Below are positions 56,553 to 61,734 of a DNA stretch of 64,000 nucleotides, piece by piece. The stretch covers positions 928,001 to 992,000 of the forward strand of contig CBDFJF010000001.1 in the NCBI GenBank assembly GCA_965248265.1. The letters run 5' to 3'. The stretch's first letter is position 1; every line of letters begins with the position of its first letter. The notes under the pieces are model-generated. The model searched no databases and was not told the DNA's origin. It was given only the letters and a program-made list of their open reading frames with translations. The DNA comes from Candidatus Latescibacterota bacterium. Lineage in GTDB: Bacteria; Latescibacterota; UBA2968; UBA8231. The position numbers and the translations under genes were made by a program.

Positions 56553-57623
56553 ATGAATCGCAATCATAGGAAGAGAAGGGCACTCACACGGCGTGTCGGC
56601 GCACTGTGCTGTGTGCTCTTCTCAATCCCAGCTTCCCGAGCGGCTGAATCAACCCAGTTGGGCATCTGCTGGGTCGCGGCAACCGAACCCGTGGGGTTGG
56701 AAGACTTCGAGCCACTGCTACGCAATCGAATCAATTGGATCTCCCAGACCACATTTGGCTGGCATCGCGATGCTCGTTCCCCCAAGATTCAACTGCGGCC
56801 GGATGCAGACTGGTGGGGTGAAAGTGACGCTGGAATAATTCAAACCGCAGCATTAGCTCGACAAGCTGGGATCAAAACATTGCTGAAACCCCACATCTGG
56901 GGGCGCCACTGGAGCGGTGATATTGCGATGCGCAGCGAGTCCGCGTGGAGTGAGTGGTTTGAAAACTACCGGAAGTTTGCTCTGCACTACGCCAATCTGG
57001 CCGAGAATGCGGGCATTGAGGCCTTTTGTATTGGAACGGAATTGCAGGGCACTACAATGCGCGAGAATGATTGGCGAGCCATTATCGCCGACGTTCGCAA
57101 GGTATACAAGGGACCGTTGATGTACGCGGCGAATTGGAGTGGAGAATTTGAGCAGGTCCGGTTTTGGGATGCGCTAGACTTCATTGGAATCCAGGCGTAT
57201 TTTCCGGTCGCTGAGCGCGAGAATCCGACCGTTCCGGAAATGCTGCTAAAATGGGAGGAGCACATAGCCCGCATAGAGGCTGTTCACAAAGCATACAAGA
57301 AGCCCGTCGTGATCACGGAAGTGGGTTATCGAAGTGAATCGAATACGGCAATCCGCCCTTGGGAATGGGAACCGCCTCAGCCGGGTGAGCAGTCTGATAC
57401 TGAAGGCTTCACTCAAGAAGGCCTTGAGACACAGGCTGATTGCTACCAGGCATTTTTCAAAGCCTTGTCGGGAAACGCCTGGCTTGCGGGAACGTACATA
57501 TGGAAGTGGCATCCTCCGCCCAACGAAAGGGCCATGCGATCCCCGGGTCCTTTTACTCCACAGGGCAGGCCTGCAGAGGCAGTCCTGAGAAATTGGTATC
57601 ATCGGATGGCGATATCAGACTGA
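56553..57623 (+). CDS. Glycoside hydrolase family 113-like protein
   Basis: LLKPHI, IGTEL, YAANW, DFIGIQAYFP and TEVGY. Confidence 0.85.
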   Translation: MNRNHRKRRALTRRVGALCCVLFSIPASRAAESTQLGICWVAATEPVGLEDFEPLLRNRINWISQTTFGWHRDARSPKIQLRPDADWWGESDAGIIQTAALARQAGIKTLLKPHIWGRHWSGDIAMRSESAWSEWFENYRKFALHYANLAENAGIEAFCIGTELQGTTMRENDWRAIIADVRKVYKGPLMYAANWSGEFEQVRFWDALDFIGIQAYFPVAERENPTVPEMLLKWEEHIARIEAVHKAYKKPVVITEVGYRSESNTAIRPWEWEPPQPGEQSDTEGFTQEGLETQADCYQAFFKALSGNAWLAGTYIWKWHPPPNERAMRSPGPFTPQGRPAEAVLRNWYHRMAISD

Positions 57624-57706
57624 TTCCTTTTGCTCAACGCAGTTTACCCCCTAAGCCGTCTTGAAGGCTTTTGGCCGTTGGTAGCGGTCACTCGACAGGA
57701 GTACAT

Positions 57707-58546
57707 GTGCGAATCGGACTGATATCAGACACTCATTGTCCGCAGCGATGTCCACACTACCCCGCCACGCTTGGTCAGGTATTTCGTGCAGTCGACCTGA
57801 TCCTGCATGCGGGAGATGTGGGTGAGCTCTGGGTGTTGGAGGCACTCGGCAACATCGCACCTGTTGTTGCTGTCCACGGAAACGATGAGACTGATGAAGC
57901 TCAGCGCCAGTTGCCCTTTGAGCAGATCGTATCAGTCGAGGGGAGGCGGTTACTCCTATCCCACGGCCACGAGACGAGCCAAGAACGGGAGCTCGAGGCA
58001 CGAGCCGGTGACGCCTGGCCCCCGAAGCTGGAGAGGCGCCTGAAACGGGCTAAAGACGCAGATGCGGAGATCTTCATACATGGCCATACCCATATCCCTA
58101 TGTGCTGGACCAAGACTGGACTCACCTTGATCAACCCTGGCGCGATTGCTTCGTGCAACGCAATCTCTCGACAGGTAACCCAGACCGTTGCGATTCTCGA
58201 TATCGCTGGAAATGGGTCACCGCGCGTCCGGCACATCGACCTGTCCAAGCCAGATGCACCGTTTGATCCGCGTTTCGACGTCAAATCCGGCTTCAGGAAT
58301 TCGTTGGCGCGTTTCTCGGAATCGATTGCGGAGCCTGAGATTGAGAATTGCCTGACGCGCGACTGGTTGGATGGCCTCGAGGATTTCGGGGCGTTCAGGG
58401 CATGTTGCCTGCGTCTTTCTCACGAATGTTGGCGTGGCGAGCGACAACAGATCACTGTGCTTGACGTTATTGCTGCTGTCAGGAATGACCCGAAAGTCAC
58501 AAACAGGGACAAGGAAAGGTGTGAAGCCGTGTTCACGGAGATGTGA
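57707..58546 (+). CDS. Metallophosphoesterase (YfcE-like)
   Basis: LISDTH, HAGD, VHGND, HGHTH and INPG. Confidence 0.88.
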   Translation: MRIGLISDTHCPQRCPHYPATLGQVFRAVDLILHAGDVGELWVLEALGNIAPVVAVHGNDETDEAQRQLPFEQIVSVEGRRLLLSHGHETSQERELEARAGDAWPPKLERRLKRAKDADAEIFIHGHTHIPMCWTKTGLTLINPGAIASCNAISRQVTQTVAILDIAGNGSPRVRHIDLSKPDAPFDPRFDVKSGFRNSLARFSESIAEPEIENCLTRDWLDGLEDFGAFRACCLRLSHECWRGERQQITVLDVIAAVRNDPKVTNRDKERCEAVFTEM

Positions 58547-58560
58547 TTACCGCCCCATCC

Positions 58561-58589
58561 TTGACAACGTGCCTGACGCATCGGATATT
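58561..58589 (+). promoter_or_regulatory. sigma70 promoter of the leader-tRNA unit
   Basis: TTGACA, 17 bp spacer, GATATT. The predicted start site is at or near the leader ATG at 58597. Confidence 0.7.
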
Positions 58590-58596
58590 GCGTGGC

Positions 58597-58680
58597 ATGA
58601 GAAATAGCCGCCTTCAGCGTCAGCAACAACAGCAACAGCGAATCCAGAGTTCGTTGGGGCAGCGGCCATCTATGTATTAG
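58597..58680 (+). CDS. Gln-rich attenuator leader peptide MRNSRLQRQQQQQQRIQSSLGQRPSMY
   Basis: 27 codons, 9 of them Gln, with six in a row (CAG CAA CAA CAG CAA CAG) at 58621-58638. It overlaps the alternative hairpins. Confidence 0.8.
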   Translation: MRNSRLQRQQQQQQRIQSSLGQRPSMY

Positions 58681-58702
58681 CACGACTGCAAATACTGAGA
58701 TT

Positions 58703-58743
58703 AAAAGCCCCAGCGGACCTTGAGTTCGTTGGGGCTTTTTTTT
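58703..58743 (+). terminator. Intrinsic terminator (attenuator)
   Basis: Stem GCCCCAGCGGAC/GTTCGTTGGGGC followed by T8, 5 nt before the first tRNA. Confidence 0.88.
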
Positions 58744-58748
58744 GTTCT

Positions 58749-58820
58749 TGCGGCGTCGTCTAACTGGCAGGATGGCAGGTCCTGACCCTGCAGATCGAGG
58801 TTCGAATCCTCGCGCCGCAG
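58749..58820 (+). tRNA. tRNA-Gln(CUG) with C33, CCA not encoded
   Basis: Acceptor stem TGCGGCG/CGCCGCA, anticodon stem GCAGG/CCTGC, loop TC-CTG-AC and T-loop TTCGAAT. Confidence 0.88.
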
Positions 58821-58831
58821 CCGAATATCGC

Positions 58832-58906
58832 TGGGGTGTCGTCTAACTGGCAGGACACCGGGCCTTGGACTCGGGAATCGGGGTTCGAACCCTCGCACCC
58901 CAGCCA
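58832..58906 (+). tRNA. tRNA-Gln(UUG) with C33, CCA encoded
   Basis: Acceptor stem TGGGGTG/CACCCCA, anticodon stem CCGGG/CTCGG, loop CC-TTG-GA and T-loop TTCGAAC. Confidence 0.9.
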
Positions 58907-58958
58907 AATCCGAACTGAAGACACGGTACTGGAGTAATCGGTGCTTACGGAGACTGCG

Positions 58959-59897
58959 ATGTCAACTCAAGATATTCTTGTCCGCGGCGAGCAGCCGGGA
59001 GACGAGAGCCAAATTGACTTGGTCCTCAGCCGCGCATTCGACGGCATGGACGAGGCCAACCTCGTCCGCATGCTGCGGCACAGACAGCCCGGTTTTGATC
59101 GATCCCTGTGTATATGCGCGTTTGTTGGCGACGTCATGGTAGGGTATACCGGCTTCATCCCTTTCGGCATGCGATTGATGGACTCCAGCGTTTCTGCGGT
59201 CGCTGTCGCGCCCGTCGCAGTTGCCCCAGATTTTCAGCGCCGGGGTATCGCCGGCATGATGCTGCGCCGTGGCCACGAAGTAGCACAAGAGGCCGGCTAC
59301 AGGCTCGCCTGCCTCAACGGCCATCCCGACTATTATCCTCGCCACGGCTACATCGCATGCTTCGGCTTCTGCAAGACAATGCTGGATCTCGACGTGTTAC
59401 CCGCGCCACGTATCGAACTGGAGGCCTGGCCTGTACAGGCGGACGATATTGCCTGGTTGATAGGATGTGATGAACGTGAGTGGCATAGTGTCGATTTCAC
59501 CTGGCCGCGAAGCAACGGACTCTGTGAGTGGGCCATCGAGGGGGTCAATGCCGTGATGTGGCGGGCTCGAGACGGGCGACGGGCAGCCTACAGCCTCTGT
59601 CGGCCCGGTCTGCGCGGACCTGGCCGACACCTGGAAACTCTCCTGGGGGACGACCCCGAACTCGTGCAAGAGGTGATTGCCCACATTAAACCTGGAAGAA
59701 TTACGAATCATCCCGCGGGATGGCTTGCGAAAAATGTTCTAAACGAGTCGTGGGCAAAGTGCGAAGCCAATAGCAGTCAGGCGGCGATGGCATATCCTCT
59801 TGTTGACGGCGTGCTTGACCCATATCTTGCCGCCCTCGAATCGGGACAACGTCAAGCGGGCACCTGCAACTGGCCTGTGCCATTCATAATGTGTTGA
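58959..59897 (+). CDS. GNAT family N-acetyltransferase
   Basis: VAPVAVAPDFQRRGIAG and GHPDYYPRHGY. Confidence 0.85.
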   Translation: MSTQDILVRGEQPGDESQIDLVLSRAFDGMDEANLVRMLRHRQPGFDRSLCICAFVGDVMVGYTGFIPFGMRLMDSSVSAVAVAPVAVAPDFQRRGIAGMMLRRGHEVAQEAGYRLACLNGHPDYYPRHGYIACFGFCKTMLDLDVLPAPRIELEAWPVQADDIAWLIGCDEREWHSVDFTWPRSNGLCEWAIEGVNAVMWRARDGRRAAYSLCRPGLRGPGRHLETLLGDDPELVQEVIAHIKPGRITNHPAGWLAKNVLNESWAKCEANSSQAAMAYPLVDGVLDPYLAALESGQRQAGTCNWPVPFIMC

Positions 59898-60099
59898 GAT
59901 CGCCGGTTGACGGAGACATGACGAGCTTTTGCGTTGGAGTTGCCCTCGTCACTCGGCCGTCTGTCAGGGCGTCAATCTGCTCAGTTACGGTCCGACCCTG
60001 GTTCTTTAGCTCCGTTCGGCGCTTATTAAGGTTGCCGATTAACTCGTCGGCCCCAGACAATGCCACCGTCCACCCTCCAGAATCCGTTGAGGTTTGACC

Positions 60100-61734
60100 A
60101 TGAACTCGGACACCTACACCGTGAACCACTGGAACGAGGCAGCGCGCGCGCAAGAGCGCTCAATTCTTACAGCGGAGCAGAACTTTACCTTTGATGCGCT
60201 CGGGTTCGTCGTGCTGCCGCAGGTCCTCAGCCTGGCCGAACTGTCCGCGTGCCGCGACAGCAGCGATGGGCTGGGCGACCTCTGCGGCGAGGCCGGCACC
60301 GTCGGGCGCTACGTGCGTGAGCTGTGCCGCGATGGCTTTCGCCAGGACGGCCATGTGAGGCACGTCCCAGCCGGCGCCGCAGGAGGACACGACCAGGCCT
60401 CGCTGCCACTGGAAGGCGGGGTGGATACGCTGGATCGGGCCTACATCAACCTAACGGGGTGGAATGGCCGCAACGCCGATGGAGCTTCGCTCTCGCGGGC
60501 CGGCGGCGACTGGGAAGAGGTCCGCATCCGGCAGTGCCAGGGCTTGGTGGTGGTCGTCGCACTCACGGAGTCTGCAGGTGGCACGTGCCCGCTGGTAGTA
60601 GTACCCGCTACGCACAAGAGCGGGCTGCCTGCCCCGCCGATTCCGTCCTCCAGCCCGTTCGCTGAACGCCCGGTGCTGGCGGCCGGCGACGTGCTGCTGT
60701 GCGCCGCCAGCACGCTGCACGGGGTCTGCCCGCAAGGTGCTGGTGGTGAGCTGCTCATCGTAAATTTCATCTCGCGCTCGGCTCGGCCACAGGTGCCACC
60801 CGAACAGCAGGACGAGGCATCCCTGCCTGCCTGGGCGGAAGAGCTCGGCGAGGCTGAGCGAACCGTGCTGGCGGGCGGCGACTCGCGTCGCGTGCTCCTG
60901 TCGGACGGTACTGCCACCTGGCTGACGCCTGCAGACGATGCCGACGTGGCGCAGCGGGCCTCCTCCCCCCTCGAGTTCGGACGCGGAGACGACGACGCCG
61001 AGCGCTGGGCGTTCGACACCCACGGCTATCTATTGGTTGAGGGCGTCATGGACGATGACTGGATCGATGCGGCCGTGGCGGGCATCGACGCCAACCTCGA
61101 TCGCATGGTGTACCGAGGCACAGGGGACAAGCTTGACGGGGACGTGACGCTTGCTGACATCCCCGGGGCGCCGACGATCTCGGGCACGGGGCGGCCTGAC
61201 CTGAGAGACTTGTTTCAGCTACCGACGCCGCACAATGCGCCTTTCCTCAAAATGCTGGCGCATCCGGCCGTCATCCAGCGCCTGAACTGGATGATTGGAG
61301 CAGGTTACCGGGTAACTCAGAACACGGCCCTGTGCCACGTCAAAGGCTCGAGCGGGCAGATGCTGCACTCGGGAAACGCCAACCCGACCTGCATCGGCAA
61401 GCACTACGAGATGGTGAACGGGCGCGTGCACACGAGGTCAGGCATCAACGTCGCTTGGCAGCTCACCGACGTCGGGCCCGACGATGGCGGGTTTGTCGTA
61501 GTGCCGGGCACTCACAAATCTTGCTACCCTCTGCCGCACTCGGTGCGGACGTGTAACGAGCGCGCTCCGATCCGCCACGTTCCCATGCGTCGCGGGTCTG
61601 TTCTCTTCTTTTTGGGTGGAACTGTCTGTCACGGAGCGTACCGCTGGGAGGCTGAGTTACCGAGGCGGACAGCGCTCTTCACGTACGGGCACGACGCTCG
61701 GCGCCCTTTTGCATGGCCCTCGAGCAAACTGTGA
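60100..61734 (+). CDS. Tandem-domain phytanoyl-CoA dioxygenase (PhyH) family protein
   Basis: FDALGF/FDTHGYL, VVPATHK/VVPGTHK and a C-terminal His in each half. Confidence 0.75.
   Translation: MNSDTYTVNHWNEAARAQERSILTAEQNFTFDALGFVVLPQVLSLAELSACRDSSDGLGDLCGEAGTVGRYVRELCRDGFRQDGHVRHVPAGAAGGHDQASLPLEGGVDTLDRAYINLTGWNGRNADGASLSRAGGDWEEVRIRQCQGLVVVVALTESAGGTCPLVVVPATHKSGLPAPPIPSSSPFAERPVLAAGDVLLCAASTLHGVCPQGAGGELLIVNFISRSARPQVPPEQQDEASLPAWAEELGEAERTVLAGGDSRRVLLSDGTATWLTPADDADVAQRASSPLEFGRGDDDAERWAFDTHGYLLVEGVMDDDWIDAAVAGIDANLDRMVYRGTGDKLDGDVTLADIPGAPTISGTGRPDLRDLFQLPTPHNAPFLKMLAHPAVIQRLNWMIGAGYRVTQNTALCHVKGSSGQMLHSGNANPTCIGKHYEMVNGRVHTRSGINVAWQLTDVGPDDGGFVVVPGTHKSCYPLPHSVRTCNERAPIRHVPMRRGSVLFFLGGTVCHGAYRWEAELPRRTALFTYGHDARRPFAWPSSKL

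Follow-up and report, generated by a model that had tools for sequence, protein, structure and literature searches.

A 64,000-nucleotide (nt) stretch of DNA from a Candidatus Latescibacterota bacterium (contig CBDFJF010000001.1, positions 928,001 to 992,000; hereafter the window) carries, at positions 58,561 to 58,906 of its forward strand, a locus in which a short glutamine-rich open reading frame (ORF) and a transcription terminator stand before two glutamine transfer RNA (tRNA-Gln) genes. We consider that this locus is probably a ribosome-mediated leader-peptide transcription attenuator that senses charged Gln-tRNA(Gln), and that what it regulates is an accessory tRNA-Gln gene pair. This reading is built from the comparison of sequences, chiefly with three related cassettes and with homologous leaders that stand before the glutaminyl-tRNA synthetase (GlnRS) gene, glnS, in sister genera. 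The same attenuator had been proposed in an earlier note made from the letters of the window (the original prediction), which also named what would speak against it, such as a separate promoter for the tRNA genes or homologous loci without the Gln run; on every such point that sequence can address, the comparison supports the proposal.

The locus begins with a predicted sigma-70-type promoter (58561–58589), made up of TTGACA (58561–58566), a 17-nt spacer and GATATT (58584–58589), which agrees with the consensus at 10 of 12 positions. Because the −10 hexamer ends 7 nt upstream of the ATG at 58597, the predicted transcript is leaderless. The ORF that starts there has 27 codons and a stop (58597–58680; translation MRNSRLQRQQQQQQRIQSSLGQRPSMY), and nine of the 27 codons specify Gln (six CAG and three CAA), against a background of 3.7% Gln codons in the long ORFs of the genome. 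Codons 9–14 (58621–58638) form an unbroken run of six, CAG CAA CAA CAG CAA CAG, which is the proposed sensor. Further downstream, a terminator hairpin (58703–58739) with 16 pairs, eight of them G-C, and a core helix of −21.4 kcal/mol is followed by eight T, and the U-run ends 5 nt before the first tRNA. The two genes, on the same strand, are tRNA-Gln(CUG) at 58749–58822 and tRNA-Gln(UUG) at 58832–58906. All of these parts lie where the original prediction had placed them, apart from a one-base point that concerns the ATG.

Four segments of the predicted transcript can pair in mutually exclusive ways. Segment 1 (CAGCGAAT, 58636–58643) overlaps the last Gln codon and would form the 5' strand of an anti-antiterminator. 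Segment 2 (GTTCGTTGGGGC, 58649–58660) could pair with either segment 1 or segment 3, and segment 3 (GCCCCAGCGGAC, 58707–58718) serves both in the terminator, as its 5' arm, and in the candidate antiterminator, as its 3' strand. Segment 4 (58724–58735) is followed by the eight T (58736–58743). The three pairings proposed originally are reproduced, with computed energies of −12.0 (1:2), −20.2 (2:3) and −21.4 (3:4) kcal/mol. Segments 2 and 4 each lie inside a copy of the 14-mer GAGTTCGTTGGGGC, which, as had been stated, occurs exactly twice in the 64 kb window (58647–58660 and 58722–58735); none of 100 shuffles gave any match. The 14-mer itself closes a direct repeat of 33 nt whose two copies are 79% identical (58628–58660 versus 58703–58735). 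The 1:2 hairpin as a whole thus resembles a diverged duplicate of the terminator hairpin, and the repeat suggests that the switch originated, or was homogenised, through duplication of the terminator.

We propose that the locus would work as follows. The first nucleotide transcribed would be the A of the ATG or one beside it, and a ribosome would translate the 27-codon leader from the resulting leaderless messenger RNA (mRNA). When Gln-tRNA is plentiful, the ribosome would clear the six Gln codons, segments 1 and 2 would pair, and segment 3 would be left free, so that the 3:4 hairpin and the U-run would end the transcript 5 nt short of the first tRNA. Under a shortage of Gln-tRNA, the ribosome would linger on the later Gln codons and cover segment 1; segments 2 and 3 would then pair before segment 4 exists, and RNA polymerase would continue past the terminator into both tRNA genes, the CUG one and then the UUG one. 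Cleavage by RNase P would release the tRNAs from the readthrough transcript, and the pool of tRNA-Gln would rise, closing a feedback loop on the tRNA itself. In this scheme we infer that the ORF is translated, that the ribosome stalls, that the choice between helices is kinetic, and what the physiological trigger is.

Searches of related genomes and of metagenome contigs found three further cassettes, L002 in genome G026, L003 in genome G032 and L063, a metagenome contig. BLAST against 61 relatives of the window genome (G000) recovered the whole unit in G026, where a stretch that opens within the leader and closes with the tRNAs is 77% identical, and matched the tRNA in G032. The cassette in L002 has the leader MRTMYSSTSTQPQRQQQRIQISPGQRVFSI and stop, a terminator, and tRNA-Gln genes of both kinds (CUG and UUG), while L003 has the leader MRTREAHSGQRQQRQRVVSPPGWVCPRSLC and stop, and a terminator whose U-run abuts a single tRNA-Gln(UUG). 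In L063, the leader MSYLETQRQQRQRQRMQHSLGRQVWVC and its stop are followed by CUG, UUG and UUG genes; the other genes of this contig share 64–70% protein identity with genes of G000, which indicates that it comes from a relative.

The order of parts (promoter, Gln/Arg-rich leader ORF, helices 1:2, 2:3 and 3:4, U-run, tRNA-Gln) is alike in all four loci. Across their peptides and DNA, conservation is confined to the Gln/Arg run and the pairing segments, a pattern also seen in known leader peptides. The regions that flank the four cassettes are not syntenic, so the cassette has been retained as a unit. An in-frame stop is kept in all four, and the ATG lies a fixed 7–8 nt past the −10 hexamer, which lends indirect support to translation of the leader. 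The promoter scan was positive in three loci (the window, L002 and L003); in L063 a candidate promoter was recognised by eye only (TTGCGC, 17 nt, TACATT, 7 nt, ATG), with a weak −35 element that the scan did not call. The terminator scan was also positive in three of the four, having missed the bulged hairpin of G032, which folds at −19.0 kcal/mol and is followed by at least eight U. The Gln run and all three alternative helices are thus present in each of the three homologous loci. One part of the original prediction holds for the window alone: the three CAG and three CAA codons of the run do match both downstream anticodons there, but this balance is not conserved, since G026 has six CAG and one CAA, and G032 has four CAG and no CAA before a lone UUG tRNA.

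Across the four tRNA-type leaders, the consensus computed by RNAalifold is the 2:3 helix, in which 95% of cells are paired. The corresponding figures are 90.6% for helix 1:2 and 80% for helix 3:4, where one row is offset by a base, and each of the three helices has two pairs with compensatory changes, as looked for in the covariation check that had been suggested. As a control, sliding the partners by one to three columns left 27–57% paired. These counts use the four tRNA-type rows only, the covariance-model alignment of all 13 leaders described below being too ragged in its glnS rows. Among 500 dinucleotide shuffles per locus, 0, 0, 1 and 12 equalled the pairing of the terminator 5' arm with the interval between the Gln run and the terminator, and in the window none of 500 shuffles of the upstream region rivalled the real sequence in pairing with segment 3.

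The strongest argument that the tRNA-type leader senses Gln-tRNA comes from its homologues. A covariance model built from the four tRNA-type leaders (R1) was searched over 76 genomes of the family and gave matches at E ≤ 1 in 37 of them, most of these being to the terminator only. Among the 30 matches listed, three are the known cassettes and five are leaders of glnS, in G024 (49 bits), G013, G025, G131 and G133 (loci L137, positions 1502–1640 in G024, L138, L139, L140 and L145). At each of the five, a short ORF with a Gln run (for example MNALYQQQRQQQRIYDNARRRFLHW and stop) and a terminator precede a gene 72–100% identical to glutaminyl-tRNA synthetase. Eight other listed matches (L142, L143, L144, L146, L147, L148, L151 and L152) have no Gln ORF, L141 overlaps a tRNA-Asn, and in the remaining 13, which were scanned for tRNAs only, no tRNA was found.

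We then extend this with a survey of glnS itself in the 76 genomes, 73 of which gave a match. Three were left out, G033 and G137 being partial at contig ends and G028 having only 140 nt upstream, and among the 70 upstream regions that remain, nine have a Gln-run leader and terminator directly upstream of glnS (four in genus g14 and five in g15; genomes G024, G013, G141, G133, G131, G130, G014, G129 and G025; upstream loci L164–L173). In this survey the region of G004 is only 177 nt long, and G031 and G036, which have T-runs and two or three Gln, were counted as negative. Together with the four tRNA-type leaders these make 13, all of which match R1 at 12–136 bits (12–49 bits for the glnS type). 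Gln runs are kept in all four tRNA-type and all nine glnS-type leaders, and the core CAG-CGA-CAG-CAA is common to both types. The glnS-type terminators fold at −16 to −22 kcal/mol and segment 2 is complementary to the terminator 5' arm. The two types differ in that the glnS-type leaders have a 5' untranslated region of about 35–75 nt in place of the leaderless start, and where segment 1 sits is not constant within the glnS type; the leaders of genus g15 have it ahead of the Gln run, with the stop codon directly adjoining segment 2. Although glnS is present in G000, G026 and G032, no such leader stands before it there, and the two uses of the leader do not co-occur in this sample. A Gln-codon attenuator before GlnRS is what would be expected of a charging sensor in its classical setting, and the occurrence of the same leader family in that setting supports the attenuator originally proposed for the window. 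In the literature searched, which left supplements and subscription papers out of scope, we found no description of a Gln-run leader peptide before glnS.

The leaders have a second compositional feature that bears on what they sense. In nearly all of the 13 leaders, the Gln codons are interspersed with codons for Arg, most often CGA (58618–58641 in the window), and CGA makes up 11% of Arg codons genome-wide, yet is strongly over-used beside the leader Gln codons. The excess may reflect a constraint from RNA pairing or a role as a slow codon. The latter would suit the alternative that the attenuator reports general translation speed or some other input, such as the rare Arg codon CGA, ribosome-stalling antibiotics or the stringent response, so that any slowing over nt 25–45 of the leader opens the switch; the short Gln runs of some homologues, such as Q-R-Q-Q-R-Q in G032, point the same way. 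However, the outputs are Gln-specific in 13 of 13 loci (tRNA-Gln or glnS) and Gln is the sole residue enriched in every leader. In the tRNA-type loci, moreover, the letters of CGA belong to segment 1 (CAGCGA), which makes an RNA-level reason for the codon available. We regard a sensor of translation speed or of such another input as unlikely.

It could also be that nothing is regulated here: the leader region would be an independent short transcript, encoding a small protein or acting as a small RNA, and the tRNAs would come from polymerase that steadily leaks past the terminator, or from a promoter that went unrecognised. Speaking for this, the terminator is a strong one (−21.4 kcal/mol, eight U) and the full-length minimum-energy fold is the terminated form; the terminator region also scores 25.5 bits against the small RNA family NsiR1, below its gathering score of 39. 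Furthermore, the consensus scan finds one promoter-like site in 57500–60000, which is what shuffled sequence gives for 2.5 kb. A plain terminator, however, has no need of the 2:3 pairing, which is conserved with compensatory changes and far exceeds what shuffles produce. The U-run lies 0–13 nt from the 5' end of the tRNA in all four loci, leaving no space for a promoter after the terminator, and, in agreement with the original prediction, the consensus scan of the tRNA strand shows no second promoter-like site in the leader-to-tRNA interval of any of the four. Together with the homologous leaders that precede glnS, these observations make an unregulated locus, in our view, quite unlikely.

Several points weigh against attenuation by a translating ribosome and we gather them here. 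The transcription start site, translation, termination and readthrough are all predictions. The promoter call taken alone lies within chance, given a mean of 1.0 promoter-like site in shuffles of the same region. No Shine-Dalgarno sequence stands before the leader ORF, so that its translation depends on the leaderless reading, and we found no description of leaderless initiation in Latescibacterota in the literature searched. The covariation comes from four related rows and is supportive rather than conclusive. The tRNA-type loci are only four, all in one bacterial family. In physiological terms, extra uncharged tRNA is not obviously helpful if glutamine itself is what is short. Finally, C33 in both window tRNAs and the missing CCA on the CUG copy could mean that their function is impaired, a point to which we return below.

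Further difficulties arise from folding. We modelled a ribosome as a mask extending 12 nt past the A-site codon. In the window, the segment 1 region (nt 36–47 of the leader) overlaps the end of the Gln-run region (nt 19–42), and a mask with its A site on Gln codons 11–14, which reaches at least nt 43, abolishes helix 1:2 in silico, as the original prediction required. A stall on the first Gln codons (7, 9 and 10) leaves segment 1 free, and a ribosome at the stop codon leaves segment 2 uncovered. If the transcript is cut before segment 4, the minimum-energy fold of the window, G026 and L063 contains helix 2:3 whether or not the leader is masked; the G032 leader forms this helix only with the Gln-run region masked, segment 2 being otherwise locked. 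Once segment 4 is included, the terminator is favoured in the window even with segment 1 masked, and to this extent the predicted contrast between masked and unmasked folds did not appear. Thermodynamics alone thus fails to separate the two states and the switch must be kinetic, as the decision in the trp leader is also held to be. The estimated direct-path barriers from 1:2 to 2:3 on the nascent RNA are 15.2 (window), 12.3 (G026) and 8.8 (L063) kcal/mol, values that are compatible with helix 1:2 lasting through the short time until the terminator is made.

The tRNA genes that the attenuator would control are not the only ones of their kind in the genome. G000 (7.32 Mb in two contigs, 59.5% G+C) has four tRNA-Gln genes among its 56 ARAGORN calls. 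The second CUG gene sits in a tRNA operon and the second UUG gene lies between ispE-like and L25-like genes; this pair differs strongly in sequence from the window pair. The second UUG gene is 92–97% identical in all five relatives searched and the second CUG gene is 97% identical in three of the five, with no match in G024 and only 72% in G025. Judged by these identities, the window genes are extra copies and the second pair is the conserved set of the family, which fits the idea of a backup tRNA put forward originally. G015, a one-contig genome from the genus of G026 and G032, has the conserved pair and no cassette. None of the other tRNAs in G000 has an upstream run of cognate codons, the Gln locus itself scoring 7/10. 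The genome encodes GlnRS, one glutamyl-tRNA synthetase (GluRS), the asparaginyl enzyme (AsnRS) and GatB (C1:518891–520303), so that machinery for both the direct and the indirect amidation route is present; gltX, the GluRS gene, and glnS lie tail to tail (C1:2374733–2376163, forward, and C1:2376524–2377948, reverse). The D-arm motif of the accessory tRNA-Gln (GTCGTCTAAYYGGCAGGA) was also found in 46 viral contigs (L065–L110), and the accessory type is thus widespread and also phage-borne, unlike the family-specific housekeeping pair.

The window tRNAs are unusual in their anticodon loops. The CUG copy has the loop UCCUGAC (58780–58786) and the 3' end GCCG (58820–58823), CCA not being encoded, while the UUG copy has the loop CCUUGGA (58863–58869) and an encoded CCA; both carry C33. 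Across the genome, U33 is found in 51 of 56 tRNA calls and CCA is encoded in 50 of 56. The five calls that lack U33 are the two window tRNAs and three doubtful ones of odd length, namely Pro-AGG (87 nt, C1:1196732–1196818), Ala-GGC (91 nt, C2:2574762–2574852) and Ser-TGA (72 nt, C2:3427691–3427762), which are likely to be false calls or pseudogenes. These exceptions raise the alternative that the locus is a decaying relic, in which the switch is perhaps intact and the two tRNAs are poorly functional or non-functional. Their scores against the Rfam tRNA model, 52 bits (CUG) and 48 bits (UUG), are, in our experience, modest, though above the gathering score of 29. On the other hand, both tRNAs retain intact acceptor stems, the discriminator G73 and an intact cloverleaf, and the window leader is the best formed of the four, with six straight Gln codons and perfect 14-nt identity between the copies that hold segments 2 and 4. 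C33 is shared with the CUG copy of G026, so the change has persisted across genera; the copies in G032 and L063 have U33. We consider a relic to be very unlikely.

A more specific idea about the purpose of the locus, which we offer tentatively and to which we assign a low probability, is that it is an inducible spare-tRNA system. A divergent set of tRNA-Gln, with C33 here, would be kept attenuated and be induced only when Gln decoding fails, for example when the housekeeping tRNA-Gln is depleted or is cut by a tRNA-targeting toxin or phage factor. The ribosome would gauge the availability of the tRNA and the cell would make that tRNA, using an attenuator that would have evolved by re-use of the one before glnS.

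An RNA-only sensor of uncharged tRNA-Gln resembling a T-box, with CAG and CAA as specifiers, segment 2 as the site for the acceptor end and no translation, would draw on the complementarity of these triplets to both anticodons and on the T-box logic of a charging sensor that controls tRNA-related genes, but is extremely unlikely, as the element is about 150 nt long with no Stem I-like platform, a UGGC to pair with the GCCA end is not seen by eye in segment 2, the in-frame ATG at 7–8 nt and the in-frame stop kept in all four loci are not required of such a sensor, and an Rfam scan of 57000–60500 at E up to 10 gave no match to the T-box (RF00230) or to another known leader family. In that region only the tRNAs exceeded gathering scores, the other matches being weak and below threshold, and none of the curated leader models (His, Trp, Leu, Thr, Phe and others) matched.

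The wider searches define how far the tRNA-type cassette extends. An exact pattern for the 5' part of the tRNA, run over the collection of genome contigs, found one locus only, the G026 contig. A pattern combining a T-run with the D-arm gave 33 loci in metagenome contigs, with a leader only in L063. A degenerate 29-nt leader pattern matched exactly only in G000, G026 and G032 among 168 genomes of the phylum; 20 places with one or two mismatches had no nearby tRNA and control counts were similar. BLAST of the leader and tRNAs over the same 168 genomes found the cassette in these three genomes only, with five further tRNA-only matches in which no leader was seen, one of them (L239) having just 4 nt upstream. 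Three low-G+C metagenome contigs (L033, L042 and L060) have a G+C-rich hairpin and T-run right before a tRNA-Gln(UUG) and no upstream Gln-run ORF; the hairpin may be the terminator of the upstream gene or a different type of control.

Among the neighbours of the cassettes, a gene for a GNAT acetyltransferase (Acetyltransf_9) begins about 50 nt past the second tRNA in the window. No terminator-like site lies between them, so readthrough might extend into this gene. Genes for PhyH-family dioxygenases are found near the cassette in three genomes, and these are not close homologues. The GNAT and PhyH-family genes lie at 58941–59897 and 60094–61734 in the window, 2026–3288 in L002 and 316–1380 in L003.

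If our reading is right, it has several consequences. Bacterial tRNA genes are generally viewed as controlled by growth rate and not individually by their own decoding performance. To our knowledge, the known outputs of leader-peptide attenuation are enzymes that make or attach amino acids, and at this locus such a device appears to govern how much of the tRNA is supplied. A single tRNA species would then be under homeostatic feedback read out by the ribosome, an attenuator would be able to shift between a synthetase gene and the tRNA substrate of that synthetase within one bacterial family, and leaderless leader peptides may be in use in a phylum that is little known and largely uncultured. 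The locus would also provide a compact natural part of about 190 bp for tRNA-responsive expression, and its layout (cognate-codon leader, terminator, tRNA) could serve as a rule for searches that may reveal further cases.

Classical leader-peptide attenuators include the trp, his, leu, thr and pheA leaders of E. coli and Salmonella, and the consecutive identical codons of the his leader are the nearest analogue of the run described here. Like them, the locus combines a short ORF, in which codons for a single amino acid form a run, with four segments whose helices 1:2, 2:3 and 3:4 exclude one another, and it has an intrinsic terminator just upstream of the regulated genes. It differs from them in that no Rfam leader family matches it, and in further ways. 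The usual output, genes for amino-acid biosynthesis or for a synthetase, is replaced by two genes for the cognate tRNA-Gln; the mRNA is predicted to be leaderless; and the stop codon lies 18 nt past segment 2, so that a terminating ribosome leaves segment 2 unmasked. As the original prediction had supposed, no attenuator with a tRNA as its output was found in the literature searched.

Attenuation before synthetase genes is the closest known setting. In E. coli, pheST is preceded by a leader-peptide attenuator. In Streptomyces lividans, one study describes the attenuators alaL-alaS, thrL-thrS and trpL2-trpS, and a leaderless leuA leader (PMC8079986). A structured 5' untranslated motif with a terminator has been predicted before Shewanella glnS (PMC2659441), and tRNA genes are not named as targets in the accessible portion of a survey of premature terminators (PMC2965389). 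T-boxes resemble the mechanism proposed here in that low charging of a specific tRNA leads to antitermination of genes that restore charging, and differ in binding the tRNA directly, with no need of a ribosome. Attenuators of synthetase genes likewise monitor how far a single tRNA species is charged and act on part of the machinery that charges it, the difference being that their regulated gene encodes an enzyme and not a tRNA. The glnS leaders of the sister genera belong to this kind and are new members of it, and the tRNA output of the window locus is the novel point, although it is not a defining feature of the mechanism.

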